This document shows positions 34,771-58,128 of a stretch of DNA of 64,000 bases, one piece after another. The stretch comes from an uncultured Candidatus Micrarchaeota archaeon. GTDB taxonomy: Archaea; Micrarchaeota; Micrarchaeia; Micrarchaeales; Micrarchaeaceae. The notes below the pieces were generated by a model. That model had not been told where the DNA came from. It was given only the letters and a program-made list of their open reading frames with translations, and did not search any database. Within the stretch, counting starts at the first letter, position 1; every line of letters begins with the position of its first letter. The stretch lies in assembly GCA_963741095.1 (NCBI GenBank), contig CAVUGN010000011.1, positions 1-64,000 of the forward strand, in the 5' to 3' direction. The translations under genes and the position numbers were made by a program.

Positions 34771-36192
34771 ATGAAAGAGATACCTTTTGAGGCAAACAAG
34801 GAGCTCGAGCGCCTCAAGAAAGAGTACAAAGCGTACCTTTACGTCAGGATCATAGACGGAAAGTTCTATGTCTACAAAGGGAGCTCAATTTGGGATAAAG
34901 AAACTAAGAAGGTGAGGGGGCTTACCGAGTATCTAGGACGGATAGATGAAAACGGGAAGTTCATAAAGAAGATTTCTAACAAAAAAAAGATCCCGATACA
35001 GACGCTCGTTCAAGGAACTGCTCCGCAAGCCATCCAAACGCTGGTCGACCAGTCTGAGATAAAATTATTGAGAATCCTGAGCATGAATGCAAAGGCAGAT
35101 TTGTCTTTTCTCGGAAAGAAGTTTCTAGGGATCAACTCTTCCGCAACATTCTACAAAGTAAGGCAGCTGAAGGAGAGATATGGCATAAAGGGTATTGCTG
35201 AAATAGATGTTACGAAGCTTGGCTACACTGACTATATAGCTTTTGTGAAATTCGAGGGCGACAAGCCAAGCGCGGATAACATAAGGAAGGCCACTTTGGA
35301 CGAAAGCCAGGTGCAACTAGTGCTTGCTACCAACGGCGAATATGACTTAATAATATACTTCTTAGCCAAGGATAATTTCGATGCATCGGAATTCATATTC
35401 AATTTGAGGTACAAGGAGCATCTGAAGACATGTATATCACAATGGTATTTCTCTCCCATTGACATATGTTATAACTTTATTCCATTAAGAGACCAGTTTT
35501 TCGAGCTGATGAAAGAAAAAGTATGGGTAAAGAGCAGGGAAAGTCAACGCAGATTGGAGGGGCAGCTCACCATCAAGGAGTACAATATACTAAGGGAATT
35601 GAACAGAAATGGTGTCGCAAAGTTCTCAGAAATGGACAAGAAACACGGGCTGGGCGGGGAAGAAACCGCATACATCTACGAAAAGCTTATTGAGAGAGGT
35701 ATACTCAAGAGGATGACAGTAAGTCTTCAGAAAATACCTTTGCAATATAACGCAGTAATCATAATGGGTGTGGTTGACAACAATGGCTTCAGGCGGACTA
35801 GAGACAGGCTGCTGATGGATGTAATAGAGGAGAACGGTACGCCTATCAACAAGTATTCTGTAATGGGAAACATAGGAAACCCTGATGGCGTCATGTTTAT
35901 AATGCCGATAACTCCGAACAACAGGCTCGATGTATTCGAAAGTGAGTTCAAGGAGAGGATAAAAGGTGTGGCACTTAGAACTCTCATAGTCACTGACGTG
36001 CTCGTTGGTTCATTATGTTACAGGAAGTTTGACAACGCAAAGTCTAGGCAATACCGGGCACTGCGGATGGAGGGCAATACAGAGCTATCATTAGCCGATG
36101 TAGACTACGATGAAACAGTTAGAAGGAAGCAAGTTATCAAGAAAGGTGAGGATACAATAGAAGAACTACTCGCCAATAATGAAAATATATAA
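34771..36192 (+). CDS. Tandem Lrp/AsnC-type regulator with N-terminal beta-sheet domain, module 1
   Basis: GKFYVYK..WDK..YLGRI N-domain; two wHTH+RAM units. Confidence 0.8.
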   Translation: MKEIPFEANKELERLKKEYKAYLYVRIIDGKFYVYKGSSIWDKETKKVRGLTEYLGRIDENGKFIKKISNKKKIPIQTLVQGTAPQAIQTLVDQSEIKLLRILSMNAKADLSFLGKKFLGINSSATFYKVRQLKERYGIKGIAEIDVTKLGYTDYIAFVKFEGDKPSADNIRKATLDESQVQLVLATNGEYDLIIYFLAKDNFDASEFIFNLRYKEHLKTCISQWYFSPIDICYNFIPLRDQFFELMKEKVWVKSRESQRRLEGQLTIKEYNILRELNRNGVAKFSEMDKKHGLGGEETAYIYEKLIERGILKRMTVSLQKIPLQYNAVIIMGVVDNNGFRRTRDRLLMDVIEENGTPINKYSVMGNIGNPDGVMFIMPITPNNRLDVFESEFKERIKGVALRTLIVTDVLVGSLCYRKFDNAKSRQYRALRMEGNTELSLADVDYDETVRRKQVIKKGEDTIEELLANNENI

Positions 36193-36248
36193 TGCAGGAA
36201 TAGAATGCAATAACTACTGATGTATCTTACAGAAATTAGCTAATTAAA

Positions 36249-36269
36249 CTACCCTCCTGGTCCTTCCAT
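36249..36269 (-). CDS. Micropeptide MEGPGG
   Basis: TATTTAAG TATA, GGTGA RBS, ATG, stop TAG; one per module. Confidence 0.72.
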   Translation of the reverse strand: MEGPGG

Positions 36270-36318
36270 ATCTTCACCTGTCCAAACATCTCTGAAAAGG
36301 CTTAAATAGCTTGTGTCC
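36270..36318 (-). promoter_or_regulatory. Conserved micropeptide promoter and RBS
   Basis: ACACAAGCTATTTAAGCCTTTTCAGAGATGTTTGGACAGGTGA; also near 41522, 43663, 46675, 52308, 58129. Confidence 0.75.
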
Positions 36319-36444
36319 GTTTGAAATGGGCCAGCGCGAATGCTCGTATAAACAACATCGAACCACGTCGGGCGATGTTGTATAATTGTCTTCATCACGG
36401 TGCATAGATAAGTATTTATACTTATTCTACATAATATACTTAAT

Positions 36445-36675
36445 GTGATGAAGATGACAAACATGACACTGGCCCTGCCGGAAGCGCTCACTGAGATAAT
36501 GAAACGGCACAAGGACATAAAATGGAGCGAGGTGGCCCGCGAGGCCATCTGGGACAAGGCGAGGAAGCTGGAGCTCATGGACAAGATCCTCTCCAAGAGC
36601 GAATTGACCGAAAAGGACGCGTTGGCGATAGGCGCGAAGATAAACGAAGCCGTAGCTAAGAGGCATGGGTTATAA
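36445..36675 (+). CDS. RHH-like antitoxin (VapB-type)
   Basis: MTLALPE..IKWSEVAREAI; upstream of PIN toxin. Confidence 0.75.
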   Translation: MMKMTNMTLALPEALTEIMKRHKDIKWSEVAREAIWDKARKLELMDKILSKSELTEKDALAIGAKINEAVAKRHGL

Positions 36676-37084
36676 CGTGATCCTGGTCGTGGACGCCAAT
36701 GTGGTGATTGCCGCATTGGTAAAGAATGGCAAAGTGCGTGAGATCCTGCTTAGCGACAAGTTCAAGTTCGTCGCACCTGATTTCGTGAAAGAGGAGACTC
36801 TGAAATACCTCGATCTAATAAAACAAAAGTCGGGACTTGCGAAAGACGACCTGGACCTGCTCATAACCCTACTGTTCCAAGAGATAGAAACCATACCCAG
36901 AAGCGAGTATCAATCGCAACTTCCCAAAGCCGAAAGGATGATAAAAAATGATGTAAAGGATGCACCATACGTTGCATGCTACCTGGCGCTGAAATGCGAC
37001 GGGATCTGGACGAACGACTCGGACTATGATGGAAAACCAGAACTGAAAGTGTTCAAAACAGAATACCTTCTGAAATTATTGTAA
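36665..37084 (+). CDS. PIN-domain toxin (VapC-type)
   Basis: VVDANVVIAAL, KDAPYVA, IWTND. Confidence 0.85.
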   Translation: MGYNVILVVDANVVIAALVKNGKVREILLSDKFKFVAPDFVKEETLKYLDLIKQKSGLAKDDLDLLITLLFQEIETIPRSEYQSQLPKAERMIKNDVKDAPYVACYLALKCDGIWTNDSDYDGKPELKVFKTEYLLKLL

Positions 37085-37104
37085 TCCACAACCTTTAGAC
37101 TTGG

Positions 37105-37179
37105 GCATCGTCGAACCATGTTGAACCACGTCGAACGACGTCGTTTCCCAATTGCACTTTTACGACGAAGAACCGGCTC
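37105..37179 (+). repeat. Left att arm with truncated core (ccggctc)
   Basis: catcgtcgaacca...cgtttcccaattgcacttttacgacgaagaaccggctc. Confidence 0.8.
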
Positions 37180-37190
37180 GCGTCGTGCTA

Positions 37191-37511
37191 CTAGATCTCC
37201 AAACCCTCTTTGAGAGCGGCACTGACCAAAGTGATACCTTTTGCCTCCCTCTCGAACTCATTTTTGGTGTAGCTTAAGAAATCCACGGGATAGTCTATCC
37301 CCTGCGATACGTGCCATTCCAAAAGGAGCTTGCTGATCAGCTTCTTTACGGGTTTCCTGATCACAACCAGAAGGTCCACATCGCTGTCCTTCTTTGCCTC
37401 GCCTCTTGCCGAAGAACCGAAGAGTATGATCCGCTCTATTCCGTACGGCTTGGCGACGCTCTCCTTGAAGCCTTTTATCGTTTTTATCAATTGAGGATTG
37501 ACCTTACCCAT
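37191..37511 (-). CDS. Minimal nucleotidyltransferase (MNT)
   Basis: LFGSSARG..DSDVDLLV. Confidence 0.88.
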   Translation of the reverse strand: MGKVNPQLIKTIKGFKESVAKPYGIERIILFGSSARGEAKKDSDVDLLVVIRKPVKKLISKLLLEWHVSQGIDYPVDFLSYTKNEFEREAKGITLVSAALKEGLEI

Positions 37512-37846
37512 TCCAAAACACCTTCACACTTTTCAATCACGTCCTTTGCTTCATCTTCCGAAACGGACCTTGTTACTGGATAGCGCGTATCCACGTAATA
37601 CTCGGTAAGATCGGCACAATAATTAACTATCTCTGCAGTTGCCTTAATGCTTTGGGCGAGCTTCACGAGGTCATGCGTCCTGTCAAATCGGCTCAACTTC
37701 TCTATCTGTGCAGCTTTCAACGCCTTCTCCGCTACCTGCTGGGCATAAAAGGATGCGTCCTTGAGCCTCTCGCTTTCATAGAGAAGCTTTGCAGTCACGA
37801 GATTGTCCTCGGCTTCTTTTATCCACACTCGTGCATCATCTTTCAT
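37487..37846 (-). CDS. HEPN-domain protein
   Basis: QQVAEKALKA, THDL, TRYP; paired with MNT. Confidence 0.85.
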   Translation of the reverse strand: MKDDARVWIKEAEDNLVTAKLLYESERLKDASFYAQQVAEKALKAAQIEKLSRFDRTHDLVKLAQSIKATAEIVNYCADLTEYYVDTRYPVTRSVSEDEAKDVIEKCEGVLEWVRSILN

Positions 37847-37977
37847 GTCCTCATAAGAATTTGCCTTAAAAACCTTAATAATGTTTGCAGTTGGGCCACA
37901 TTCATCCAAAATATTTGAATATGTGTTTTTTTTAAGTGAGTCTTATTCCTTCGTAATGACTCCTAACTCGAAACACA

Positions 37978-38021
37978 AACATCGTCGAACCACTTCGAAC
38001 ACCGTCGTTTCCCAATTGCAC
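37978..38021 (+). repeat. Partial left att arm
   Basis: aacatcgtcgaaccacttcgaacaccgtcgtttcccaattgcac. Confidence 0.75.
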
Positions 38022-38071
38022 CGCCAAAGTACCACACCATAAGAAATATAAAGCAGAAATGCACAATATTA

Positions 38072-38320
38072 GTGATAAAGATGGAAATGGAAGTGTACGG
38101 ATTCAAAGCCAAGATAACCAAGGAAGGTAAGTATCTCATAGGCGAGATACCGGAGCTGCATGTAGCTGATCAGGCCAAGACCCTGAAGGAACTCGAGAGC
38201 GAACTCAAGGATGCGGTAAGCCTAGTTGTAAATCTTATCCTGGACAATCCAAAAGATGCAGCCAAGAACTTCGGTAACGGTGTCATAAGAAAGCTGAGCG
38301 TTCAGGTAATCCGCGCATAG
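38072..38320 (+). CDS. HicB-like antitoxin
   Basis: KEGKYLIGEIPEL..QAKTLKE pattern. Confidence 0.75.
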   Translation: MIKMEMEVYGFKAKITKEGKYLIGEIPELHVADQAKTLKELESELKDAVSLVVNLILDNPKDAAKNFGNGVIRKLSVQVIRA

Positions 38321-38328
38321 GTGTATCC

Positions 38329-38550
38329 ATGTCGCGGTTACGCCCGCTGAAAAGTCCTCTCCTCATAAAGGTGCTGCAGAAATACTACGGCTACAACGCA
38401 CGCTCTGGAAGCGGCAGGCATATAGTTTTGCAGGACTCGGATGGTCATACGACTGTGATCCAGCTTAACATGGAACTCGGCAAAGGCATCCTGAAGAAGA
38501 TACTAAATCAAACTGATTTGAAGTGGAAAGAAATAGAGAAGTACCTCTAA
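38329..38550 (+). CDS. HicA-like toxin
   Basis: GSGRHIVL..TTVI..LGKGILKKIL. Confidence 0.78.
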   Translation: MSRLRPLKSPLLIKVLQKYYGYNARSGSGRHIVLQDSDGHTTVIQLNMELGKGILKKILNQTDLKWKEIEKYL

Positions 38551-38553
38551 ATG

Positions 38554-38684
38554 ACATCGTCGAACCACGTCGACCAACGATGTTTCTCAATCACACTTTT
38601 ACGTCGAAGGACCGGCTCCCCACCAGGAAAATTATCGACGACAAAATTCGTCTTTTCGATGGATGTTGGAGATGTGGACTGTAT
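38554..38684 (+). repeat. attP-like junction (left arm, core 38612-38622, right arm)
   Basis: cacttttacgtcgaaggaCCGGCTCCCCAccaggaaaattatcgacgacaaaa. Confidence 0.85.
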
Positions 38685-38744
38685 TCAACAAAACTACATG
38701 TAAATCTGGTATAGTTCCAGGTATAGTCTTGAGTATAGCCTATA

Positions 38745-39005
38745 TTATTTCCTATACTCATAATGGCTCACGGCCTTGCCGTACCTGCTACTTATGTTCT
38801 TTGAGATGTAATCAGCGACATCTAACGGCTCCTTGCCGTCCGTGAACCTGGCCTTGACCACGAATCCGCAGTCGCCTTCGGTCAGTAGGACCTCCTTGAC
38901 GGACTCGAACATCATCAGCTTCTCTGCGATCCCGCCGGCGTCTGCGTTCTCTTTTGGCCTTACGAAATAGAGCCCGTACATCGCGCCTATTCTCTTTTTA
39001 CCCAT
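38745..39005 (-). CDS. Stand-alone RAM-like domain, module 2
   Basis: Identical to 33536-33796 protein. Confidence 0.6.
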   Translation of the reverse strand: MGKKRIGAMYGLYFVRPKENADAGGIAEKLMMFESVKEVLLTEGDCGFVVKARFTDGKEPLDVADYISKNISSRYGKAVSHYEYRK

Positions 39006-39020
39006 GTCAATCCACCATAA

Positions 39021-39164
39021 TCATAATCGGTCTATATCAAGCAACTTGACGAACACGCTGTGGCATCTGTCACACTCCTCGATCACGAACCTGCCGTTCA
39101 CCACACGCTTGCATACCAGCCTTCCTGTTCTGCACCTACTGCATGCAACTCCCTCGCTGTTCAT
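39021..39164 (-). CDS. 47-aa zinc-ribbon protein, module 2
   Basis: MNSEGVACSRC...CDRC; frame-preserving 3-nt indel versus copy 1. Confidence 0.75.
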   Translation of the reverse strand: MNSEGVACSRCRTGRLVCKRVVNGRFVIEECDRCHSVFVKLLDIDRL

Positions 39165-39430
39165 CCCTCGATCACCGTTCCGTAGTCGCCGTCCAGTCCT
39201 TTCGATATGTACGCGGTAGCGTCCTTGGGTTCAGCACCGACGAAAAACTTCACCTTCGCCAGGAACACGCCCTTGTTTTCCATCAGGTTGACTGCCTTCA
39301 CGCGCTTCAGTGCAAGCAGCCTGTCTGCAAGGCGCTCGCTGACACGGCTCTTTGGATTCCCGAAGTAGAACCGGTGCCAAACAGCATGGCTCGCGCTGAC
39401 ACTTGTTACTTTTCCACCCGTATTACACAC
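39161..39430 (-). CDS. Small RAM-like protein, module 2
   Basis: Paralog of 33949-34218. Confidence 0.6.
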   Translation of the reverse strand: MCNTGGKVTSVSASHAVWHRFYFGNPKSRVSERLADRLLALKRVKAVNLMENKGVFLAKVKFFVGAEPKDATAYISKGLDGDYGTVIEG

Positions 39431-39476
39431 CCACTTCTCTTGCTTTCTTTACCTCATTCTGACAAACATGAAGACA

Positions 39477-39674
39477 TCATCTGGATGCGGAAACAGCCCG
39501 CATTCCTAACTCGCCAAGCAGCATCACCGGCCTGCCGGTCCTTTCCAACTCGCAGGCGTTTATGTGCCACAGATATGCAACTGGATTCTCATGCTCCATT
39601 CCGCACATCCAGCACTGGTACATATTATCGTGCCCTCCAAAGAAGATATCCTTTATCCTTGTTCCCATGCCCAT
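39477..39674 (-). CDS. C2HC zinc-finger small protein, module 2
   Basis: CWMC..H...C. Confidence 0.75.
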   Translation of the reverse strand: MGMGTRIKDIFFGGHDNMYQCWMCGMEHENPVAYLWHINACELERTGRPVMLLGELGMRAVSASR

Positions 39675-39686
39675 TCTACCATCCTA

Positions 39687-39788
39687 TCAATCATAAGGGT
39701 AGGGGGTTGCACCGCGGAAGCATGGTGATAATGTGGAGGACGAGCTTGCGCTAATCCATAGAAAATTCTTACTTCCACCCCTGTACAA
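39687..39788 (-). CDS. 33-aa leader ORF, module 2
   Basis: MYRGGSKNFLWISASSSSTLSPCFRGATPYPYD. Confidence 0.5.
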   Translation of the reverse strand: MYRGGSKNFLWISASSSSTLSPCFRGATPYPYD

Positions 39789-39971
39789 CCTACACACCCG
39801 TATAGTATCGCGTCATATCCGGTATTTATTAGATACAGAAGACAGGGCGGTAGTATTGATAAAGCGAAAACATTAAAACATATAAATTTATCATTAAGCG
39901 CTCAATCTTCAATTGTTATACATTAAGGATTTAACAAAAGGAATAAATATCCTCTTATTTGATATAACTAC

Positions 39972-41468
39972 ATGCAAGACGTTCCACCACAGATATCTGC
40001 TGCTTTCGAGAAAGTGAAGAAGACGTACCCGTTCTATGTCTCGCTGAAGAGGATATACGGAAAATATTACGTATACAAAGTGAAGGTCGTCTGGGACCGA
40101 CTAACCAAAAAGACAAAAACAAATTCTGAGTACTTGGGCCGGATAACCAGCGATGGGAAATATAAAAAGAAGAGCATCACACCGAATGATTACCTGAGAA
40201 AGGCCGAGGCACTCATCGCTTCCAAAGGTGGGAAGATAACGTGGGACGGAATTGAGAAAGTCCGGGGTGCAAACGAGCAGATTAAAGAGGAACAGATCGA
40301 GGAAACTGTTGCCGACGAATTGGAAACGAAGATACTGACTATATTGAGTATGAACGGCCGCGCGTCGATACCTTTCATAAGCAAGATGGTTGGTCTTAGC
40401 AATGCTACAACAGATTATCACGTAAAGAAGATCGAAGAGAAATACGGCATCAGATATTTTCCAGAGATAGACGTAGACAAATTAGGTTATGCCAGCTTTA
40501 TGATATCCATAAAATTTGAAGATGAGGTTCCGAGTGCAGAAGAGATTAAAAGAGAGCTTAGCAAATTTCCTGGAGTACAACTTGCAATGGTAACTCATGG
40601 TAGATATGACCTAATAATTCATTTTGTAACCGGGACCGAATATATGCCAAATAGTTATGGATGGGCATCTCAGAATGAAATATATGACCTCCAAAATAAT
40701 GCTTTTAGAGCAAACAAGGCAAAATGGTACGTGTCAACGTTTTACAGAACATATGGATGCGTACCGTTGAGAAACGAATTTTTTGATATGATGAAGAAAA
40801 TAGTGTGGGAAAAAAGCAAAGAGAGCAGGAGACCTAAGCCAAATCAACTTCTTCCTAGGGAGTATTTCGTACTAAAAGAACTAAACTTAGATGGTAGGTG
40901 CGAATTCACAGAAATAGACAATAGATGCAATTTTGATAGGGGTAGATCAGATTACACCTATAAAAGATTAGTTGAAAATAAAACAATAAAACGCATCACG
41001 TTGACAATGCAGAAACCTCCGGTAAAGTATGTGGCAATAATCTATATGGATTTTATAAAAAGAGATGAGTTTTCAAAGAGCAGAGTGAATCTTTTATTAG
41101 ACATAATAGAGCGGCGAACACAAATAAACAAATACGCACTTGTTGGCGATGCGAGCATTCCATATGGTGGATTCTTCATACTGCCGATAACTCAAGATGG
41201 GCTACTAGAAAAAGTCACCGAGCAATTAAAGAGCATAAGCGGCACAAACGTATACGCTCTTGTTGCAAGCGAGATAGTCTTAGGTAGCCTTTGTTATAGA
41301 TTATTTGATAACGCATACTCAAGCCAGCAACGCATGTTGGCTGATGAGTACAAGAAGCATCCAGTTGAAAAAGCGAATTATTTGGGCGTAGCAAAAACCA
41401 AAAAGAGTAGTATAAAATTAGATATAAGGGGATTGCCTACTGACAAATCAACAGATGACGTTACATAA
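39972..41468 (+). CDS. Tandem Lrp-type regulator, module 2
   Basis: Same architecture; ILTILSMNGRASI HTH; VPLRNEFF linker. Confidence 0.8.
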   Translation: MQDVPPQISAAFEKVKKTYPFYVSLKRIYGKYYVYKVKVVWDRLTKKTKTNSEYLGRITSDGKYKKKSITPNDYLRKAEALIASKGGKITWDGIEKVRGANEQIKEEQIEETVADELETKILTILSMNGRASIPFISKMVGLSNATTDYHVKKIEEKYGIRYFPEIDVDKLGYASFMISIKFEDEVPSAEEIKRELSKFPGVQLAMVTHGRYDLIIHFVTGTEYMPNSYGWASQNEIYDLQNNAFRANKAKWYVSTFYRTYGCVPLRNEFFDMMKKIVWEKSKESRRPKPNQLLPREYFVLKELNLDGRCEFTEIDNRCNFDRGRSDYTYKRLVENKTIKRITLTMQKPPVKYVAIIYMDFIKRDEFSKSRVNLLLDIIERRTQINKYALVGDASIPYGGFFILPITQDGLLEKVTEQLKSISGTNVYALVASEIVLGSLCYRLFDNAYSSQQRMLADEYKKHPVEKANYLGVAKTKKSSIKLDIRGLPTDKSTDDVT

Positions 41469-41488
41469 GCAGAATGCACTTTAGCTTT

Positions 41489-41521
41489 TTATCCGTTACC
41501 TCCTGTTCCTCCTCCTTCCAT
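41489..41521 (-). CDS. Micropeptide MEGGGTGGNG
   Basis: Conserved TATA/RBS; stop TAA. Confidence 0.72.
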   Translation of the reverse strand: MEGGGTGGNG

Positions 41522-41723
41522 ATTTTCACCTGTCCAAATATCTCTGAAAAGGCTTAAATAGCTTGTGTCCGTTTGAAATGGGCCAGCGCGAATGCTCGTA
41601 TAAACAACATCGAACCACGTCGGGCGATGTTGTATAATTGTCTTCATCACGGTGCATAGATAAGTATTTATACTTATTCTACATAATATACTTAATGTGA
41701 TGAAGATGACAAACATGAAGACA

Positions 41724-41921
41724 TCATCTGGATGCGGAAACAGCCCGCATTCCTAACTCGCCAAGCAGCATCACCGGCCTGCCGGTCCTTTCCAACTCGC
41801 AGGCGTTTATGTGCCACAGATATGCAACTGGATTCTCATGCTCCATTCCGCACATCCAGCACCGGTACGCATCGCCGCGCTCTCCCAAGAAAATATCTCT
41901 TATCCTTGTCCCTATGCCCAT
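41724..41921 (-). CDS. C2HC zinc-finger small protein, module 3
   Basis: CWMC..H...C. Confidence 0.75.
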   Translation of the reverse strand: MGIGTRIRDIFLGERGDAYRCWMCGMEHENPVAYLWHINACELERTGRPVMLLGELGMRAVSASR

Positions 41922-41937
41922 TCTACCACTCTATCAA

Positions 41938-42033
41938 TCATGAGGGTAGAGGATTGTACTGTGGAAGTGTGGTGAGACTCTGGACAGAGCCTGCGCTGAA
42001 TCTAGAAAAATGCTTACTTCCACCCACATACAT
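41938..42033 (-). CDS. 31-aa leader ORF variant, module 3 (C-terminal half frameshifted relative to other copies)
   Basis: ATG after GGGTGGG; MYVGGSKHFSRFSAGSVQSLTTLPQYNPLPS. Confidence 0.4.
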   Translation of the reverse strand: MYVGGSKHFSRFSAGSVQSLTTLPQYNPLPS

Positions 42034-42242
42034 ATCCTTCCCACCCATGGTAGATGCTATGAAGAAGCTTTTATAAATAGGCTCTCAGAATTTTTAATTA
42101 TATATATCAATACAGGTATGAAATTCCAATAAATCTCATACTATTTAACCATATTAACCATATATAATAGATGGCAGATTAGTATAATGGTTAAATAGAT
42201 AAATTAGAAAGTTATATATATTACCCATTATAAGGCATATGT

Positions 42243-43622: not shown

Positions 43623-43638
43623 GAATGTATTATACGCT

Positions 43639-43662
43639 TTATGCTCCTCCTCCATCTCCCAT
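43639..43662 (-). CDS. Micropeptide MGDGGGA
   Basis: Conserved TATA/RBS; stop TAA. Confidence 0.7.
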   Translation of the reverse strand: MGDGGGA

Positions 43663-44654: not shown

Positions 44655-44668
44655 TTAACGTGACTTGA

Positions 44669-44857
44669 TTAACTCCTTGAATTCGCATCTATCATGACGC
44701 GCATGCTCCCGGCTGACAGTTCCATCATATCGGATATATAGCTGCCGACCTCGCTCTCCCTGCAGTACGCCTTGCCTTCCACGCTGTCCGTGTGCACCTG
44801 CACGAGAACGCTCCTGTCGTTTCCCAAGATATGCTTTATACTTGCACTCACGCCCAT
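44669..44857 (-). CDS. 62-aa conserved small protein, module 4
   Basis: Paralog at 56049-56225. Confidence 0.65.
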   Translation of the reverse strand: MGVSASIKHILGNDRSVLVQVHTDSVEGKAYCRESEVGSYISDMMELSAGSMRVMIDANSRS

Positions 44858-44866
44858 TCTACAACC

Positions 44867-48946: not shown

Positions 48947-48958
48947 AATTGATCATCT

Positions 48959-50068: not shown

Positions 50069-50089
50069 CTTTTCGCCCATCAGATAAGC

Positions 50090-50424: not shown

Positions 50425-50622
50425 TCATTTGGGTGCGGAAACAGCCCGCATCCCTAAATCGTCAAGCAGCATAACTGGTCTGCCGGTCCTTTCCAATTCA
50501 CATGCGTTTATGTGCCACAGATACGCGACTGGATTCTCATGTTCCATGCCGCACATCCAGCACTGGTACACATCGCCGCTCCCTCCAAAGAAAATATCCC
50601 TTATCCTTGTTCCCATTCCCAT
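50425..50622 (-). CDS. C2HC zinc-finger small protein, module 5
   Basis: CWMC..H...C. Confidence 0.75.
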   Translation of the reverse strand: MGMGTRIRDIFFGGSGDVYQCWMCGMEHENPVAYLWHINACELERTGRPVMLLDDLGMRAVSAPK

Positions 50623-50918: not shown

Positions 50919-52244
50919 ATGGATATGCCTGAAGCGGTGCGAAAGACTTTTGCAAGGCTAAAATTAGAGTATCCTTTTTACATTCTGCTTTCGATAATAA
51001 ACAACAGGTTTTATGTTTATCATTCATCTTCTATTTGGGACAAAGAAAAAAGAAAAGTGCGCAGTAACAAAGAATACCTAGGCCGCATAACCGAAGATGG
51101 TAAGTTCATAAAAAAGAGCGTTAAGGAAGGCATTGCACCGCAGATTAATACCCTAACCTCCATAAACAGCCTAGACAAGGTCGACGAAAAAATACTGACG
51201 CACCTAAGCATGAATTGCAGACTGCCGATATCAACGATAGCAGAACGGGTGGGATTAAGCGTACAGGCTACGGAGCGCAGAAAAGAGAATTTAGAGCGGA
51301 GATACGGAATTAGATACTTCACAAGCATAAACTACTTCAAGCTCGGTTACTCCACATACCTCGCATTTGTCTCTTTTAAGGACAAAAAGCCGGACATGGC
51401 TGTGCTGAAATCAGTATTAGAGAAATCACCACGAATACAGTTGGCCATGGCGGCGCAGGGTGCATACGACCTAGTTCTCTACATCCTGGCCGAGAATAGT
51501 GCAATTCTAAACGAAGTCATATTCGATATTCGGAAAGATGAACGAATTGGAGATTACGAATCTATCTGGAATGTTGTAGTATTCGATCAAGCATATGGGT
51601 GCGTGCCACTGCGAGACCTGTTCTTCGACCTTCTCGAGAAGAAGGTGTGGCATAGAACCAAAACAATACCTAAGCCGGCAAGCGATAGCCTGACATATAG
51701 AGAGTATGTACTACTTAGAGAATTGAATTCCGAAGGCAACAAGCCTTTTGCTGAGATAGAAAAGATGCATGACATGGGTCACGGCGCTGCAAAGTACACG
51801 TTTGACAAGATCAAGGCTAAGGAATTAATATGGAGGCCAACAATGACAATGGGCAATTATGGCGTAAAATACAATGCAATGATCTTCATCAGCATACTAA
51901 ACAAGGCTGCATTTATCCGTGACCGGGAAAAGTTTCTTCGTTATATAATCAAGGACTACGATGCACCGTCGAACAGGTTCTCTCTCGAAGGCGATACTCT
52001 ATCCCCAGATGGAGAAGTATTCCTAATGCCTGTTCTGCGGGACGGAGAACTGGAAATGGAATCTGGATGGCTAAGCGAACAGATAAACGGAATCAAACTA
52101 GAATCGCTGATCATCACAAAAATACTTCTAGGTGAGCTGTGTTATAGAAAATTAGATAACGCACATGCCCAGCAAACAAACATACTCGTAAGTGAATATA
52201 AAATGGAACCCCCTAAGGAAACCATAGATTATATCCTAGAATAG
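50919..52244 (+). CDS. Tandem Lrp-type regulator, module 5
   Basis: LDKVDEKILTHLSMNCRLPISTIAERVGLS classic Lrp HTH. Confidence 0.82.
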   Translation: MDMPEAVRKTFARLKLEYPFYILLSIINNRFYVYHSSSIWDKEKRKVRSNKEYLGRITEDGKFIKKSVKEGIAPQINTLTSINSLDKVDEKILTHLSMNCRLPISTIAERVGLSVQATERRKENLERRYGIRYFTSINYFKLGYSTYLAFVSFKDKKPDMAVLKSVLEKSPRIQLAMAAQGAYDLVLYILAENSAILNEVIFDIRKDERIGDYESIWNVVVFDQAYGCVPLRDLFFDLLEKKVWHRTKTIPKPASDSLTYREYVLLRELNSEGNKPFAEIEKMHDMGHGAAKYTFDKIKAKELIWRPTMTMGNYGVKYNAMIFISILNKAAFIRDREKFLRYIIKDYDAPSNRFSLEGDTLSPDGEVFLMPVLRDGELEMESGWLSEQINGIKLESLIITKILLGELCYRKLDNAHAQQTNILVSEYKMEPPKETIDYILE

Positions 52245-52265: not shown

Positions 52266-52307
52266 TTAACCTCCGCCCCCTCCGCCTCCGCTTCCTCCTC
52301 CGTCCAT
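52266..52307 (-). CDS. Micropeptide MDGGGSGGGGGGG
   Basis: Conserved TATA/RBS; all four Gly codons used; stop TAA. Confidence 0.72.
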   Translation of the reverse strand: MDGGGSGGGGGGG

Positions 52308-52386
52308 AATATCACTGTTTAAACATCTCTAGAAAAGCTTAAATGGATTGTGTCTGTTTGAACTTGGCTAGCGCACATGTTTGTGC

Positions 52387-52515
52387 AAACATCGTCGAAC
52401 CACGTCGACCAACGTTGTTTCTCAATCACACTTTTACGATGATTGACCGGCTCCCCAGAGAAAAATTTATCGACGACAAAATCCGCCTTTTCGACGAATG
52501 TTTGAGATTTGAACT
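52387..52515 (+). repeat. attP-like junction (core 52447-52457)
   Basis: aacatcgtcgaaccacgtcgacc...CCGGCTCCCCAgagaaaaatttatcgacgacaaaa. Confidence 0.85.
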
Positions 52516-52559: not shown

Positions 52560-53435
52560 TTACTTGTTTGTATTTACGAATTCCCAAAAGCTTCCTCCAT
52601 TTGCCGATGTGTACCTTTTCATTGCCGGCAGCAGCATTTCTGCGTAGCTCTTCAGGTACGGCCTTGCTGCAACCATCCTTTCGCATGTTCTATCTACAGA
52701 TATGGGTTCGCTCAATCCTAACTGTCCGGTCAATATACCCTCTGGGGCAAGATAGCTTACCAGGGCTTCTTCATACAGGTTGTGATCATGAGTGCCGATC
52801 AGCCCGGACTTGCGGGGCAGAAGTAAGTGCAGGAGCTCATGCAGCGCAACGCACAGCAACTCCCTGCCCAGCCTCTCTGGATCTTTATGCGCAACATGGG
52901 ACAGATAGCATCCAATCACTGCCGGATCTGCATTCAAGGCATGCCCTCCAACCACCATATCGTTATCAAAGCCTTTTTTCTCCGCCAATATCAGCGTGAT
53001 CTGTTCTGGCAGTTTCGCCTCCAACATCCTGCTAAAATTATCGCGGATTTCACTTTCTTTCGAGTGGAAAATATCTGATGCAATCTTGCCTATCCCAGCC
53101 AAGACGCCACTGCTTTCTGCAGTGTCATTGCAGTATACGTTCGGCTGCAGCTTTGGCATGTCAATAGCATCTAACAGTATCCGAGTTGTCTTGTCAATAG
53201 ACGGAAACCTTTTGAATGCTACCTGTTCATTTTTGCTATTGTATAACAGATTTGCAGCTTCTATTACATTCCGATAAGCATCGTAGAAGTCCAGGATTGA
53301 TGAATAGCCCTTTACCACAGTCTGCAGATTGCCAGGAGTGAAGAATATGTCATATACTCCAAGTATCTTTTGAGCATTGGAGTTTGTGGTGATCGTTAAT
53401 TTCACATATTCACCTTTGCTGCGCGACATTGACAC
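52560..53435 (-). CDS. HExxH-motif protein (zincin-like peptidase or RiPP tailoring enzyme)
   Basis: ALHELLH...EEALV; last gene of radical SAM operon. Confidence 0.55.
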   Translation of the reverse strand: MSMSRSKGEYVKLTITTNSNAQKILGVYDIFFTPGNLQTVVKGYSSILDFYDAYRNVIEAANLLYNSKNEQVAFKRFPSIDKTTRILLDAIDMPKLQPNVYCNDTAESSGVLAGIGKIASDIFHSKESEIRDNFSRMLEAKLPEQITLILAEKKGFDNDMVVGGHALNADPAVIGCYLSHVAHKDPERLGRELLCVALHELLHLLLPRKSGLIGTHDHNLYEEALVSYLAPEGILTGQLGLSEPISVDRTCERMVAARPYLKSYAEMLLPAMKRYTSANGGSFWEFVNTNK

Positions 53436-54358
53436 TGTTCTACTTCAATATCAAGTGACTTGAATCTTTCTATTGACCTTTTCCAAATAGTACTCCATGG
53501 CTCATTGTAGGCATTTCCTAAAACTACTTCCCTTAAATTAAGACACGGAGTGACATCTCCATTGACAAGCACGCCTGCTTGGATAACTCCGGCTGTGCAG
53601 GTCTTGAAATGGTATGAGTCAAGCAATGTCTCTTCCACTCTATCCGTGCATCTCTCTATCACTTCTACCACTTTAACGTTTTCTCTATCTAGTTGAGATC
53701 TCATATCCTCAACTCTGAGCATCAGATCATACATTTCATGCCTATCAACCACCAAGTCTTGGTATTTGTTGGGATCCACTGCAGGTTGCAGAGGCTCCAA
53801 GTTCAGCAGCTTCATCTGACTATATTTCTTCATCAAGACCTCCGTACTATTGAGCACATCATCCTGGTTTGCCTTAGTTATGACTATCCCGACTGTAAAG
53901 GGTATTTCATTTCTCTCAAGTATGTCAAGACCATCCAGAGTCTCAGCAGTCTTTCCTCGCGTCCTATCGTTTATTTCCGATCTTACACTATCTAAAGAGA
54001 CTTGGATTGCGGCATCATTTCCTACGGCATTCTTTAATCTCATTAACTCTTCTTTTGTAAGCCTATTTATCAGCGTGCCATTGGTACTCACTTCCACTAC
54101 AGTCTTGAACGTGTTCTTTGCGAGTTCAAACACATCAACTATATCTCTTCTACTAAAGGGTTCTCCACCGATCAACAGTATCTCGAAGGGATTTGCCTCT
54201 TCCTTTGTTTTCTCAAAGAGATTTTTGAGTCTTTCGAGGGGTGGAGTGATATGAGTGAATGGCTGAGCATAACAGTAGGTGCAATTAAGATTGCACCCAC
54301 TTACCACTTCAAACTCCACCCTGAAAGGCAAACTTGGCAATATCTTCTGAGCCATCAT
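53402..54358 (-). CDS. Radical SAM/SPASM(twitch) peptide-maturase-like enzyme
   Basis: CNLNCTYC, GGEP, CTAG..GDVTPC..LGN. Confidence 0.85.
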   Translation of the reverse strand: MMAQKILPSLPFRVEFEVVSGCNLNCTYCYAQPFTHITPPLERLKNLFEKTKEEANPFEILLIGGEPFSRRDIVDVFELAKNTFKTVVEVSTNGTLINRLTKEELMRLKNAVGNDAAIQVSLDSVRSEINDRTRGKTAETLDGLDILERNEIPFTVGIVITKANQDDVLNSTEVLMKKYSQMKLLNLEPLQPAVDPNKYQDLVVDRHEMYDLMLRVEDMRSQLDRENVKVVEVIERCTDRVEETLLDSYHFKTCTAGVIQAGVLVNGDVTPCLNLREVVLGNAYNEPWSTIWKRSIERFKSLDIEVEQCQCRAAKVNM

Positions 54359-55314
54359 GCACTCGCCTTGCTTCTGCATTGCATTCCCTTTGGAAGAGTT
54401 TCGTATCTTTCAAGAGATCTTACCCATATATCATGCCACGACTCCTTAAACACGTTTCCGATGTTTGCGTCTCTCATCAGTGCGCATGGGGATACATTTC
54501 CATTTGGGAACACTGTTGCTCTGAACACTCCAGCCAAACACGTATCCATTTTGTATGTGTCGAGTACAGCAGGATCATTGCAGGCGCACTTGTCACCAGT
54601 TCCTGTGATTCGAACTGAACTACCCATGCGTGCTGCAGTACCGCGAACTTGTACAATCAGAGCTGCCATCTCTTTTGCTCCGATGTCCAAGCTCTCATGA
54701 TATCTCTCTTTATTTGAGAGGTTTGGCATCATTCGGTTCAAGTTAATCCCATGCAGGTGCTTGAACTCTGACATGAAGGCGACTTCGGTATCCATTATAT
54801 CGTTGATATTCTCCTTGCTTACTACCGTTCCGATTGAGAATGGAATTTGATGGTCATCCATCTTTTGCATCCCTCTGAAAACGGTGTCAGTCTTTCCTCT
54901 CAGCATATTGTTCAAAGAAGGCTTTGCGCTGTCTGCAGATATTTGGATAAAGGCATCATCTCCTGCTATTTTCTTTAGTCGTGCAAAGTCAGCTTCAGTC
55001 ATTATGTCGAAGGCCGTTCCATTTGTGACTACTCCTACTCTCCTCCCAAAAAGGTTCCTCGACTCTTCAATCACGTCTAGTACGTCTTTGCGTGTGAATG
55101 GCTCGCCTCCGCAAAGGATTACCTCGAAGGGGTCTACTTCTTGCTTCGTCTTCTGAAGCATATATATCACGTCAACCAGAGGAGGCTCGTAATGTGAAAG
55201 GGGCTGGGCATAGCAATTTGGACATGCTAGATTGCACATTCCAGTCACCTCAATCTCTACTCTGAATGGAACTTGTGGCAGAATCATGTTTTTATTCTCC
55301 ATATCAAACCCCAT
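54355..55314 (-). CDS. Radical SAM/SPASM(twitch) enzyme, paralog of the next gene
   Basis: CNLACPNC, GGEP, CLAG..GNVSPC..IGN. Confidence 0.85.
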   Translation of the reverse strand: MGFDMENKNMILPQVPFRVEIEVTGMCNLACPNCYAQPLSHYEPPLVDVIYMLQKTKQEVDPFEVILCGGEPFTRKDVLDVIEESRNLFGRRVGVVTNGTAFDIMTEADFARLKKIAGDDAFIQISADSAKPSLNNMLRGKTDTVFRGMQKMDDHQIPFSIGTVVSKENINDIMDTEVAFMSEFKHLHGINLNRMMPNLSNKERYHESLDIGAKEMAALIVQVRGTAARMGSSVRITGTGDKCACNDPAVLDTYKMDTCLAGVFRATVFPNGNVSPCALMRDANIGNVFKESWHDIWVRSLERYETLPKGMQCRSKASA

Positions 55315-55325
55315 TTGGGTGGCAG

Positions 55326-55718
55326 TTAGACTGCCACCGTTTCCAGAAGATTCGGGTATTCTGCCCTAACATCTTCTACGTTCCTATCCAGTATGCTTTT
55401 CAGCAGACCGATAGTCTTTGCTGGAGCTGTGAAGATAGTGCTATCTTTCAGATTCATGATGAATCCGAAGAGTCCATCTTCTCTTACCTTGATACACTCA
55501 GACACCTTCATATCTGTTCCCCTTAGGAGTCCGGGTGTCAAAGGATTTATGCTGGAATTCATCCAATTGGAATGGCTCATCCAATTGCCATGACCATAGC
55601 CTCCAGCGTATGGCTTTTCTGCCCATTCTTGCTTTGCTCCAACTCTTGAGTACAGCTGTATGCCATACTCATTCTGCACTCTCGTGGCAGACTCCGCTTT
55701 TGATGCTTGTTTATCCAT
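55326..55718 (-). CDS. Putative RiPP precursor fused to a PqqD/RRE-like domain
   Basis: Repeated HGNWMS/HSNWMN core, then a 61-aa beta-beta-beta-alpha-like domain; heads rSAM operon. Confidence 0.5.
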   Translation of the reverse strand: MDKQASKAESATRVQNEYGIQLYSRVGAKQEWAEKPYAGGYGHGNWMSHSNWMNSSINPLTPGLLRGTDMKVSECIKVREDGLFGFIMNLKDSTIFTAPAKTIGLLKSILDRNVEDVRAEYPNLLETVAV

Positions 55719-55739
55719 CTTTTCACCCAATAGATAAGC

Positions 55740-56006: not shown

Positions 56007-56048
56007 TTTCCCACCCAGTTTACTTTACACCCGCTTAACGTAATCTGA

Positions 56049-56225: not shown

Positions 56226-56238
56226 CTCACCACACCAA

Positions 56239-56370
56239 TCATAAATATAATGGTGGGAGATTAGAGAGAAAGGCAGATATCGGACGTGGTAGAACTGAGG
56301 CCCGTTTGGGAAGAATTGTTGAAACAACGTGCATGCAAGAAGCCTGCACCCTCGTATTCAGAACCGACAC
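56239..56370 (-). CDS. 43-aa non-homologous leader ORF, module 6
   Basis: GTG after GGGTGA at the same position as the other leader ORFs. Confidence 0.35.
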   Translation of the reverse strand: MSVLNTRVQASCMHVVSTILPKRASVLPRPISAFLSNLPPLYL

Positions 56371-56570
56371 TGTTATCACCCACCAAGTCAATAATATGAA
56401 TTTTGGACTATATATAGATGGCTTAGGGAGAAAGACATTCGCCATGCTCAAAGCGTTAATTAATACACCAATTTTTCGGTATAAGTTGCCAAAGTTAGTG
56501 TTACTGATAGGTATTCTTAACCATGCTACTAAGCGAAATCCTTAAATAGTATATATGTTGCAATTTACTT

Positions 56571-58025
56571 ATGCCTGATGTGCCGGCCAGCGTTGCGAGG
56601 GCGTACGAGAGCATAAAGGGAGAGTATCCGTACTTCGTAAGCCTGAAGAAGATCCACGGCAAATACTTTTATTTGTACAAGCAGAGCGTGCGGTGGGACA
56701 AGGAAGAGAAAAAACGGAAGACAGTTTCGAAGTACTTGGGCAAGATAACTCCTGATGGGCGTTTCATAAAGAAGATGCCTGGTCTGAGCAAGGATCTCGG
56801 TAGGGCAATGGCGGTAATAGAGTCTTATGGCGGCACCGTGGTCCTTCCCGAGAAAAGGGAAAGCGAACTGCAGGCTACGGCTTTAGAACAAGGCATCAGC
56901 GAAATCGACGACAGGTTGCTGACGGTACTTAGCATGAACGCAAGAGCAGACCTGTCGTACTTCGGGAAACAGATGGGCCTGACTGCATCGGCTACCTATT
57001 CAAGAGTAAGGCACCTCGAGCAGAAGTACGGGATAGGGTACGTCCCCGAGATAGACATCAGGAAGCTTGGCTACCTTACTTACATGATATTCGTGAAGTT
57101 CGCGGAACAGCCGCCCAGCGCAGACTTGACGAAAGAAGCACTGAAAAAAGAACCTATAATTCAGCTTGCCCTCCTGACACAAGGCAGGTATGACATAGTT
57201 ATGTATGCCACGGTCGAGAATAGCGACGAGGCAAGGACACAGATCTACGAGCTACAGGCGCGGGTGTTCCCGACTTATGAAGCGGAGTGGCATGTGGTGC
57301 CCTTCTACCCCACCTACGGCTTCGTGCCCCTGAGGCAGGAATTCTTCGACCTGCTCGCGCAATCGGTATGGAAAAGGACGAAAGAGCAGCCGAGAAAGCG
57401 CAAGGGCCAGCTGACTCAGAAAGAGTACATTGTGCTCAGGGAGCTTAACGCCGATGGCGCAGCGAAGTTCTCCGAGATAGACAGAAAGCATGGGTTCGTC
57501 GGGGAGGGCGCGGCTTATACGTACCGCAAACTTATCGATACGGGGTTACTGAAAAGGGTAACCATGACGATGCGGAGATTGCCCATGCAATACACGGCGA
57601 TGTTACTTGCAGATATAACAAACAGGGCAAAGTACGCCACGAGCAGGGAGAAGCTGCTGAAGGGGATAATCGAGAAAACTGCCACGCCAACCGATAGGTA
57701 CGCCCTTGTCGGGGACAGGTGGACGCCTTTCGGCGTAGTATTTGTGGTGCCGATATTCGGGGAAGTAGACCTAGAGAAAGCTGAGGGAGTAATAAAGAGC
57801 AGAATAGACGGCATCCAATTGGACAGGCTGATCGTGCTGGGCACATCAATAGGTTCAATGTGCTTTAGACGATTCGATAACAATTATTCCAACCAGCACA
57901 GGCTTCTGGTCGAGGAGTATAAGATGAAGGACTCGCTGAGAATGGATTACACGCTGACTGGAAAGGGGGGCATGTCTAGGATTTTAGGCGAAAACGAAGA
58001 TAATCTTGCAGAAGAAGATAGCTAA
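56571..58025 (+). CDS. Tandem Lrp-type regulator, module 6
   Basis: IDDRLLTVLSMNARADL HTH; GRYDI RAM. Confidence 0.8.
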   Translation: MPDVPASVARAYESIKGEYPYFVSLKKIHGKYFYLYKQSVRWDKEEKKRKTVSKYLGKITPDGRFIKKMPGLSKDLGRAMAVIESYGGTVVLPEKRESELQATALEQGISEIDDRLLTVLSMNARADLSYFGKQMGLTASATYSRVRHLEQKYGIGYVPEIDIRKLGYLTYMIFVKFAEQPPSADLTKEALKKEPIIQLALLTQGRYDIVMYATVENSDEARTQIYELQARVFPTYEAEWHVVPFYPTYGFVPLRQEFFDLLAQSVWKRTKEQPRKRKGQLTQKEYIVLRELNADGAAKFSEIDRKHGFVGEGAAYTYRKLIDTGLLKRVTMTMRRLPMQYTAMLLADITNRAKYATSREKLLKGIIEKTATPTDRYALVGDRWTPFGVVFVVPIFGEVDLEKAEGVIKSRIDGIQLDRLIVLGTSIGSMCFRRFDNNYSNQHRLLVEEYKMKDSLRMDYTLTGKGGMSRILGENEDNLAEEDS

Positions 58026-58104
58026 ACACCATGAAAAATACTGTGCAGAACATATATGATTACTACCATGAATGCGCTTTTCAGTCGCCATTAATCATAA
58101 CGCT

Positions 58105-58128
58105 CTAACCGCTAGCTCCGCCATCCAT
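58105..58128 (-). CDS. Micropeptide MDGGASG
   Basis: Conserved TATA/RBS; stop TAG. Confidence 0.72.
   Translation of the reverse strand: MDGGASG

Follow-up and report, generated by a model that had tools for sequence, protein, structure and literature searches.

Convergent micro-ORF units beside tandem Lrp/AsnC-type regulators in Micrarchaeota: a candidate peptide–regulator module

In a 64,000-nt stretch of DNA from an uncultured Candidatus Micrarchaeota archaeon (assembly GCA_963741095.1, contig CAVUGN010000011.1, positions 1–64,000; the whole stretch is hereafter the window), each of six genes for tandem Lrp/AsnC-type regulators is accompanied by a tiny, glycine-rich open reading frame (ORF), which lies just beyond the regulator's stop codon on the opposite strand, behind what appear to be its own promoter and Shine–Dalgarno (SD) sequence. 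This pairing of regulator and micro-ORF is real and apparently undescribed, and very probably belongs to a lineage-specific module that joins a tandem Lrp regulator, one or more convergent SD-led micro-ORF units and, often, a divergently encoded small RAM-like protein. The sequence features described below make it probable that the micro-ORFs are translated; that their peptides partner the RAM-domain regulators is the reading we favour, tentatively. The source genome (G000) comprises 1.08 Mb in 11 contigs (~51% GC, 94% complete); R1–R12 denote its regulator paralogs (R1–R6 in the window), and labels of the form Lnnn and Gnnn denote loci and genomes.

An earlier note on this DNA had listed six micro-ORFs convergent to the regulators and 16–79 nt beyond their stops, and all six read exactly as described, on the minus strand. 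They encode MEGPGG (36249–36269, stop TAG) 56 nt from the stop of R1, MEGGGTGGNG (41489–41521, TAA) 20 nt from R2, MGDGGGA (43639–43662, TAA) 16 nt from R3, MDGGGPGGG (46645–46674, TGA) 77 nt from R4, MDGGGSGGGGGGG (52266–52307, TAA, with a T5 run after it) 21 nt from R5, and MDGGASG (58105–58128, TAG) 79 nt from R6. Ahead of each stands the common block that the note had pointed out, ACACAAGCTATTTAAGCC-TTTTCAGAGATGTTTGGACAG(G)TGA-N4-ATG, also on the minus strand. The R1 copy (36270–36316) reads ACACAAGCTATTTAAGCC-TTTTCAGAGA-...-ACAGGTGA-N4; the R2 copy (41522–41568), together with ~130 nt further upstream, is 98% identical to it; those of R3 (43663–43709), R4 (46675–46720) and R6 (58129–58174) follow the same plan, and that of R5 (52308–52353) is more diverged (ATCCATTTAAGC). 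The 12-mer AGCTATTTAAGC is exact at five of the six sites and has two mismatches at the sixth (52337); with up to two mismatches allowed it occurs 13 times in the window, against 4.73 expected, a number reached by none of 100 shuffles. In appearance the block is an archaeal TATA box followed by an SD, as had been proposed, and the SD matches the 3' end of the 16S gene, GATCACCT. A partial palindrome around the TATA (AAGCT-ATTTA-AGCTT) is perfect by eye in only two copies, and we claim no operator; the regulators' promoters and the micro-ORF regions have no meaningful 9-mers in common.

The regulators, all on the plus strand, are R1 (34771–36192, 473 amino acids (aa), 36–38% identical to its paralogs), R2 (39972–41468, 498 aa), R3 (42243–43622, 459 aa), R4 (45155–46567, 470 aa), R5 (50919–52244, 441 aa) and R6 (56571–58025, 484 aa). 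The earlier description of them as Lrp-type is borne out by Pfam and by structure prediction. An AsnC-type helix-turn-helix (HTH; HTH_AsnC, PF13404) is found in five of the six (E 6.2e-11 in R5 to 5.5e-5; 7.7e-6 in R4), R3 and R5 exceeding the 27-bit cut-off and R4 (26.1), R6 (26.3) and R2 (23.3, with HTH_24 as well) falling below it. Pfam also indicates a weak second, MarR-like HTH in the window regulators, a MarR match of this kind being all that R1 yields, and the RAM domain (AsnC_trans_reg, PF01037) appears in R4 only (E 8.6e-5, below cut-off). An AlphaFold2 (AF2) model of R6, built on a 25-sequence alignment (mean predicted local distance difference test score, pLDDT, 85.1), consists of an N-terminal beta-rich domain (residues ~1–70), a disordered linker, two HTH-RAM modules (~110–250 and 280–430) and a disordered tail. 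Its top Foldseek match is NirDL (4ch7; E 1.1e-10, TM 0.54 on the target, 11–12% identity), followed by ~30 Lrp/AsnC/FFRP structures that each match one module (TM 0.67–0.76 on the target, E 8e-6 to 1e-3). The siroheme decarboxylases (AhbA/B, NirD/L/G/H) were considered and rejected as an identity, the likeness being one of fold only: NCBIfam lists LysM, LrpA and Lrp regulator families alone, all far below cut-offs, and no Ahb or Nir family. Given the Pfam, AF2 and Foldseek fold and the regulator families listed, we read these proteins as tandem Lrp/AsnC-type regulators, for which DNA binding and a response to amino-acid ligands are putative. The 12 paralogs of G000 are mutually 30–41% identical (tblastn), and named homologs are annotated as AsnC/Lrp regulators or hypothetical proteins of Candidatus Micrarchaeota or Micrarchaeales.

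The arrangement holds throughout the source genome, where all 12 regulator paralogs bear one to five convergent downstream micro-ORFs, ~20 in total. Each unit has a TTTAAR-N7-CAGAGA promoter block, a GGTGA SD and an ATG; the motif TTTAAR-N5-8-YNRGAGA matches 19 times in the genome, 15 of these matches being micro-ORF units, and once in a reversed-sequence control. In all 15 promoter-defined units the distance from TTTAA to ATG is 35–37 nt and the ORF stops within 13 codons. The genome contains 13,262 short ATG ORFs (5–26 codons), 35 of which are at least 50% Gly; 20 of these 35 sit convergent-downstream of regulators, and every one of the 16 that bear SD and TATA marks as well is among the 20. 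More than one micro-ORF is present at five loci; of those, R11 has five ORFs behind three promoters (MEGGGSGG, MEGGETG and MNGGDGP; MTGGDGAT; MLGGNGA), while three ORFs belong to R10, two to R9 and two or three to R7. In an array, the downstream ORFs lack a TATA, but an SD of the GGTGA type precedes most of them at an unchanged distance. Arrays also occur in relatives, with seven micro-ORFs in series at L037, most behind a GGTGA/GGTGG-type SD and one copy shorter than the others by exactly one codon, and five each at L116 and L121. Their turnover is fast: L120 and L121, whose regulators are 94.6% identical, have one and five micro-ORFs, respectively. At these two loci and L116 the first ORF, MEGQNSG, is nucleotide-identical in the metagenome-assembled genomes (MAGs) of three species, the sequence just outside promoter and ORF having diverged. 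Distal array units lie 230–320 nt from the regulator and have T-runs after them, an arrangement more in keeping with a product than with antisense action of purely local reach.

Matches to the regulator family were confined to two families within a single Micrarchaeota order. A search with R6 gave a match at E <=1e-10 in 37 of 41 genomes of the same order (its own included), and in a sample of the phylum at E <=1e-30 the regulator is present in 61 of 74 and 34 of 54 genomes of the two families, with no match in genomes of 28 other families; this tally takes in one genome flagged as unpublished (G054). An exhaustive search at E <=1e-30 gave 258 clusters at 50% identity. We screened the 400 nt beyond regulator stops for a TATA-like 5-mer, an SD-like 4-mer, an ATG and 3–25 codons. 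In a first set of 72 regions (12 from G000, 60 from relatives) the unit was found on the convergent strand in 48 and on the sense strand in four, with 9.25 in shuffles; the corresponding numbers for a further 39 regions, forming an independent set, were 24, three and 4.1. Combined, 72 of 111 regions have the unit on the convergent strand, against seven on the sense strand and ~13 in shuffles, so that the opposite-strand scan of regulator homologs put forward in the earlier note marks the micro-ORF as a conserved, non-random partner across genera. Of the 39 regions missed by the strict screen, a relaxed one recovers seven; inspection by eye shows that the spacing rules alone excluded some of the rest. 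Where the promoter sequence has diverged, the ORF features (SD, ATG, short length and Gly) are retained. In 596 Gb of species-representative genomes the promoter-SD-ATG pattern has 31 matches, 11 of them in records titled Micrarchaeota or Micrarchaeia; six of the 11 precede ORFs of 7–16 codons, and five of these six have a regulator match 120 nt to 0.5 kb away. The other 20 look like chance, for which ~16 matches had been estimated. Three metagenome loci that matched the R6 N-terminal motif only were not used. In several of the homologous regulator genes the reading frame is interrupted by one or two stops (TAA, TAG or TGA; e.g. G003:C3:21618-22940 and genes on G017:C12, G018:C8, G022:C3 and G006:C8), which could reflect pseudogenes, assembly errors or something else; intact micro-ORF arrays persist at some of these loci, L037 among them.

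The case for translation starts from the ribosome. The 3' end of the 16S gene is complementary to AGGTGATC, and AGGTGA or AGTGAGAT stands 4–6 nt ahead of the micro-ORFs. Ahead of the first ATG of 797 long ORFs, GGTG or GTGA occurs in 19.2%, against 5.5% in a control window (3.5-fold), an enrichment from which we take the GGTGA-type SD to be in use in this genome. After GATCACCT the 16S gene reads TAAAA, without the usual CCTCC; internal GGAGG was considered as an SD-like element and rejected, as without CCTCC it is not complementary to the anti-SD here. The model has 1478 positions, whereas the 16S match (L115; G000 C1:98605-100598) extends over 1994 nt, an excess suggestive of insertions or an intron. 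Within the units, GGN is phase-locked to the ATG in every case. Codon and stop counts for G000 were taken from 17 correctly parsed ORFs, three further units being dropped: stops are TAA in 12, TAG in three and TGA in two (TAA in 31 of 43 in relatives), and Gly makes up 81 of 134 residues (GGA 51, GGC 17, GGT 10, GGG 3). One GCC and one TCC tRNA-Gly gene are present among 27 tRNAs found. In the two screened sets Gly accounts for 35% and 32% of residues, against 7–8% in controls; many ORFs of relatives hold only 0–2 Gly. After Gly the commonest residues are D, S, E, P, T and N, while K (one of 134 in G000), R (none) and hydrophobic residues are scarce, despite purine-rich AAR and AGR codons that would fit a purine-rich sequence. 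Peptides often end in G, P or D. The ORFs are 5–13 codons long in G000 and mostly <=22 in relatives, and the earlier statement that they lack a signal sequence stands: no peptide has a hydrophobic N-terminal segment.

Between paralog loci, DNA upstream of about -140/-176 is 75–93% identical over 150–1200 nt, and DNA outward from the first micro-ORF codons is 72–98% identical; the regulators between these flanks share 30–41% of residues, with DNA similarity limited to a patch of 54–103 nt. The flanks are thus homogenised and the interior diverged, which means that regulator and ORF coding part vary together, and the view of the two as one cassette is upheld by this comparison. These mosaic loci (33400–58200 in the window; C1, C5 and C10 of G000), whose flanks reach 78–98% DNA identity, imply gene conversion or cassette exchange. 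Some peptides are shared between related regulators: R3 and L024 (regulators 52% identical) have ...GGGA in common, the peptide of L024 being MGGTGGGA; the R2 lineage shares M-x-GG-[AG]-[ST]-GG; and L014 and L084 (88% identical) have MDPGKSGGD and MDPGKSGD.

Three features lead us to favour the reading that these are translated micro-genes whose peptides partner RAM-domain regulators: arrays whose ORFs have SDs of their own and whose promoters can be separate, the bias in amino acids, and the way regulator and ORF co-vary within cassettes. Also in its favour are the association of unit and regulator across genomes, the motifs shared within lineages, and the partner domains, in that the regulator has two RAM modules, a RAM-like small protein recurs next to it, and RAM domains are established binders of small ligands. 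A dedicated archaeal promoter (TTTAAR, with CAGAGA ~7 nt on) would drive a convergent miniature transcription unit at the 3' end of the regulator gene; a GGTGA SD, pairing with the 16S 3' end, would start translation of one to five ORFs of 5–13 codons; and the product would be very short, Gly-rich, acidic or neutral peptides acting inside the cell. These might feed back on the adjoining RAM-domain regulator or on a set of RAM-domain paralogs, and a regulator may act on the conserved promoter block. Transcription, translation, binding and the direction of control are in each case predictions from sequence. In a bolder form of the same reading, the peptides would be Micrarchaeota micro-signals, intracellular or passed from symbiont to host, in which unprocessed Gly-rich peptides of 5–13 residues, made from dedicated mini-genes and arrays, are sensed by the RAM domains of the 12-fold expanded regulator family and regulator and peptide are exchanged as cassettes; to this we give a small but real chance.

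A number of observations weigh against peptides as partners, the first of them in their coding sequence. All four Gly codons and three stops do occur, as the earlier note had stressed in arguing for selection on the peptide, but Gly codon use is very uneven: GGA makes up 63% of Gly codons in G000 and 61% in relatives, against 21% genome-wide and 22–29% in the regulators (chi-square p 4e-19), a bias indicating a constraint on nucleotides, RNA or codons, which a model based on the peptide alone would not predict. A test of the frame of the first stop gives nine of 16 (binomial p 0.05), a weak result confounded by ATGA. Archaeal transcription starts ~26 nt from the TATA centre; the leader predicted by this rule is only ~5–12 nt, which may place the SD of a first ORF right at the start of the RNA, and the distance from TATA to ATG is only 4–6 nt longer at micro-ORFs than at the apparently leaderless regulator genes. 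Even under the relaxed screen, 32 of 111 regulator 3' regions have no unit. No RAM domain is known to us to bind a peptide. The sequencing runs that match positions 36001–46000 of the window comprise 20 of DNA and none of RNA, a count that says nothing on expression.

The relationship between peptides and regulators adds further points of this kind. The earlier note had proposed that each peptide is the specific ligand of its own regulator, and a check of co-phylogeny over 72 pairs reveals no overall correlation of peptide similarity with regulator identity (Spearman r 0.059, a value reached by 315 of 2000 permutations). Peptides are instead more alike within a genome than between genomes (0.196 against -0.065; none of 2000 permutations), also when G000 is left out (0.049 against -0.096; again none of 2000). 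Two genomes of a single genus, with their C-x-P or A-P endings, and G198, with its PEK-rich forms, exemplify this per-genome 'house style', which sits more easily with gene conversion, or with a partner common to the whole genome, than with one-to-one cognate pairs. In the closest ortholog pair, R12 and L016 (regulators 74.5% identical), MSEGGWS and MAANWGG differ at five of seven residues, and the ORF, judged by eye, has diverged far more than the non-coding DNA around it. Strict one-to-one cognate signalling is thus weakened by the absent co-phylogeny and the house style; binding, of whichever regulator, is a putative step.

Several of these observations would be accommodated if the unit acted in cis, as a translation-gated, convergent antisense unit whose short RNA extends into the regulator gene from its 3' side and whose peptide is a by-product. 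We consider this possible, if still short of probable, and the alternative offered in the earlier note, a Gly-sensing translated leader of an antisense RNA, is a serious rival. Here the GGA- and Gly-rich mini-ORF would be a rare-codon leader, perhaps stalling the ribosome after a C-terminal Gly, Pro or Asp, that sets the extent or duration of the antisense RNA and so tunes the regulator. Runs of rare codons are typical of attenuator leaders, as in the leu leader, and C-terminal G, P and D, on which many of the peptides end, slow peptide release; the over-use of GGA, the poor conservation between orthologs and the absence of co-phylogeny all suit this account, as does the role of Lrp-family proteins as feast/famine regulators. 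The geometry suits it as well. The units are strictly convergent with 1–93 nt between stops (1–8 nt in L091, L035, L057, L024, L032 and L014); with this orientation and spacing the 3' ends of regulator and micro-ORF unit must overlap, and no consistent T-run terminator follows the micro-ORFs of R2, R3, R6 and R8. Local antisense control would, however, make arrays of three to seven ORFs with their own SDs superfluous, along with the distal promoters and their T-runs at 230–320 nt, and the scarcity of K and R, whose codons include purine-rich ones, speaks for the peptide. With only 0–2 Gly in many relatives' ORFs, sensing of Gly cannot be a general function. The six putative transcripts fold unremarkably (z -0.74 to +1.52), and leader-peptide attenuation is, to our knowledge, undemonstrated in archaea.

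An unlikely alternative dispenses with translation altogether, the block being a promoter/operator or the start of an antisense or small RNA, and the G-rich triplets an RNA or DNA feature such as a purine tract. The GGA bias would then be the nucleotide-level constraint it resembles, the far better conservation of the promoter block than of the ORF would follow the same logic, and the short predicted leader may exclude an SD. Against this stand the ATG at a fixed distance and the 16S-complementary SD in every unit, the mostly GGTGA-type SDs of array ORFs that have no TATA, the 15 of 15 promoter-defined ORFs that stop within 13 codons, the phase-locking of GGN to ATG, and the array member that differs by an in-frame codon. 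Moreover, GGAGG is not complementary to the anti-SD in this organism. A structured RNA was rejected on the unremarkable folds given above; Rfam at its gathering threshold matches three tRNAs only in the window, and a permissive Rfam scan of 44000–47000 gave two chance matches at E 3. As for a G-quadruplex, several micro-ORFs have only three GG runs.

That the peptides are exported or enzyme-modified signals, RiPP-like or of a quorum type, matured by radical SAM/SPASM enzymes and an S9 peptidase with the Lrp protein as controller or sensor, appears very unlikely. The idea arises from the minus strand of the window, where an S9 prolyl-oligopeptidase-family gene (47003–48946) and a radical SAM gene (48959–50080) have the R4 micro-ORF directly downstream on their own strand, and where two adjacent radical SAM/SPASM genes (53402–55314, within 52560–55730) precede the R5 micro-ORF. 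Two unannotated ORFs (291 aa and 134 aa) lie within this radical SAM/S9 region (47003–50080 and 52560–55730), which may be a peptide-modification or cofactor cluster; all NCBIfam matches are far below cut-off, and the best for the two adjacent radical SAM/SPASM genes include peptide maturases, but the radical SAM matches equally include heme (NirJ/AhbD) and MoaA families. The multi-copy arrays do look like arrays of precursors. Known RiPP precursors are, however, much longer than these peptides, which lack both a leader and a signal sequence, and we rejected RiPP precursors with a radical SAM/SPASM maturase on inconsistent co-location, the adjacency being confined to two of 12 regulator loci and three of the 13 radical SAM genes of the genome.

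Finally, the block could be read as the boundary of a recombining or mobile cassette (a gene-conversion tract, or an att-like repeat by tRNA-Pro) with incidental tiny ORFs, which is most improbable: highly identical flanks around deeply diverged regulators, repeats of the tRNA-Pro end at 38612, 46845 and 52447, PIN and HEPN/MNT genes nearby and shifts in array copy number between close species speak for it, but the unit is kept beside regulators in many genera with different flanks, and SD, ATG, short length and Gly are kept where the promoter has diverged. The repeats comprise the last ~12 nt of tRNA-Pro (33341–33416) and the next 70–300 nt, recurring at 98.7%, 88% and 87% identity (33403–33700, 38612–38909, 46845–46926 and 52447–52515); from their sequence they look att-like, or else they belong to the cassette flank that is itself repeated. 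Among the scanned ORFs we saw neither an integrase nor a transposase.

In addition to the regulators and their micro-ORFs, the loci share small flanking genes. Divergently upstream of R1 lies a gene for an 86-aa protein (33536–33796, minus strand) resembling a stand-alone RAM domain, with an identical copy at 38748–39005. Its AF2 model (pLDDT 77.8) has a beta-alpha-beta-beta-alpha-beta fold, its match to Pfam AsnC_trans_reg (E 0.038) is below cut-off, and Foldseek returns FFRP-DM1 (2e1a, E 3.8e-3) among other ferredoxin-like folds, none at <=1e-3; on these models it weakly resembles stand-alone RAM proteins. It has tblastn matches at 13 loci of relatives, divergently upstream of the regulator wherever orientation was read. 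The conserved left flank of R1 (34265–34588, minus strand) holds genes for 36 aa (34478–34588) and 66 aa (34265–34465), and related flank genes lie upstream of R4 (44364–44986). The 66-aa protein, whose C-x2-C...H-x4-C pattern is zinc-finger-like by eye, has copies at 39480–39674, 41727–41921 and 50428–50622, is 79–86% conserved over the four cassette flanks, and recurs in two relatives' loci. Between R1 and R2 (36665–37909) are toxin–antitoxin-like genes, namely a PIN gene (36665–37084, plus strand) and a nucleotidyltransferase/HEPN pair (37191–37511 and 37487–37909, minus strand); a PADLOC search for defence systems had no match among eight proteins.

Elsewhere in the window, a trinucleotide-repeat tract (TTG/TGC-type) at ~43980–44060 lies within ORFs at 43966–44230; contigs of two metagenome runs break there, with differing continuations of the repeat. 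Among the rows listed for four DNA runs, which have fragmented, low-depth contigs, there were no micro-ORF variants, and one loose contig end in this comparison is the R1 paralog placed on the R2 block. On another contig of the genome (G000 C9:14043, minus strand), a 74-aa protein in which the motif E-[DE]-G-[YF]-L-Y-F occurs twice is encoded behind a TTTAAA...GGAGA type of promoter, and a homolog with the same promoter is found in another Micrarchaeota MAG (L129).

Full-text searches of the literature, in which Micrarchaeum harzensis was included and supplements were outside the scope, gave no account of such micro-ORFs. Two passages of one article mention an Lrp/AsnC regulator adjoining a copper ATPase (PMC5498576), and a term search of another had no match for Lrp, AsnC, small RNA or peptide (PMC8975820).

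The micro-ORFs would rank among the shortest independently expressed genes known. Gene callers overlook them; their units are kept in many genera of a host-dependent archaeal lineage that is still poorly understood, and they are bound to the largest family of regulators that it has. Should the peptides be effectors, they would constitute a new class of ligand for RAM/Lrp proteins and a peptide–regulator system for archaea; signalling by peptides that RAM domains sense would be the first peptide-based regulatory system in this domain of life. As translation-gated antisense switches, the units would instead offer a first clear candidate for leader-peptide-type sensing in archaea. Either reading offers concrete, cheap targets for existing Micrarchaeota co-cultures.

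Among known systems, the RRNPP and Rgg-SHP pairs of Firmicutes and their phages (Rap/Phr, PlcR/PapR, AimR/AimP and Rgg/SHP) are similar in that a tiny peptide gene adjoins the gene of a cytoplasmic regulator, paralogous pairs differ in their peptide, and the pair varies between conserved flanks; in one SHP group the peptide gene is even convergent to the regulator. The present loci differ in having a tandem HTH-RAM receptor without a TPR domain, an archaeal host, products of 5–13 aa in total without an export or processing part, and no detected co-phylogeny. PatS of Anabaena, a peptide of 13–17 aa whose RGSGR motif binds the transcription factor HetR, is alike in layout, being a Gly-containing, unprocessed mini-peptide without signal sequence that acts on a DNA-binding regulator, where the corresponding binding here is putative; unlike the micro-ORFs, patS is no fixed neighbour of hetR, and the regulator folds are unrelated.

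Leader-peptide attenuators and arrest peptides (the his, leu and trp leaders, TnaC, ErmCL) are SD-led ORFs of ~6–25 codons. The micro-ORFs share with them the SD-led short ORF, codon runs for one amino acid (a fainter feature in many relatives), reliance on a rare codon and an exact peptide that is poorly conserved. Such leaders lie upstream of the genes they control and on the same strand, whereas the micro-ORFs converge on the regulator's 3' end and form arrays with separate promoters; downstream on the micro-ORF strand there is only regulator antisense, with no significant RNA structure. The gene mccA of microcin C, at 7 codons, is likewise SD-led, of similar length and independently expressed, and has a functional peptide product, where expression and product are putative here; it differs in that no MccB-type adenylyltransferase is seen near the micro-ORFs and that the C-terminal Asn is not conserved in them.

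For the regulators themselves, FL11 and DM1 of Pyrococcus (2e1a, 2cyy, 2e1c) share the HTH_AsnC and RAM fold and a small RAM-like protein encoded beside the regulator; the Micrarchaeota proteins differ by two HTH-RAM modules in one chain behind an N-terminal beta-rich domain and by 12 paralogs in 1.08 Mb, and we know of no counterpart to the attached micro-ORF unit among Lrp/AsnC feast/famine regulators. NirDL/AhbAB (4ch7, 4czd) is also a fused tandem Lrp-like fold, which makes NirDL the best structural match over both modules, but identity is 11–12%, and 12 diverged paralogs would be unexpected for a single enzyme step.

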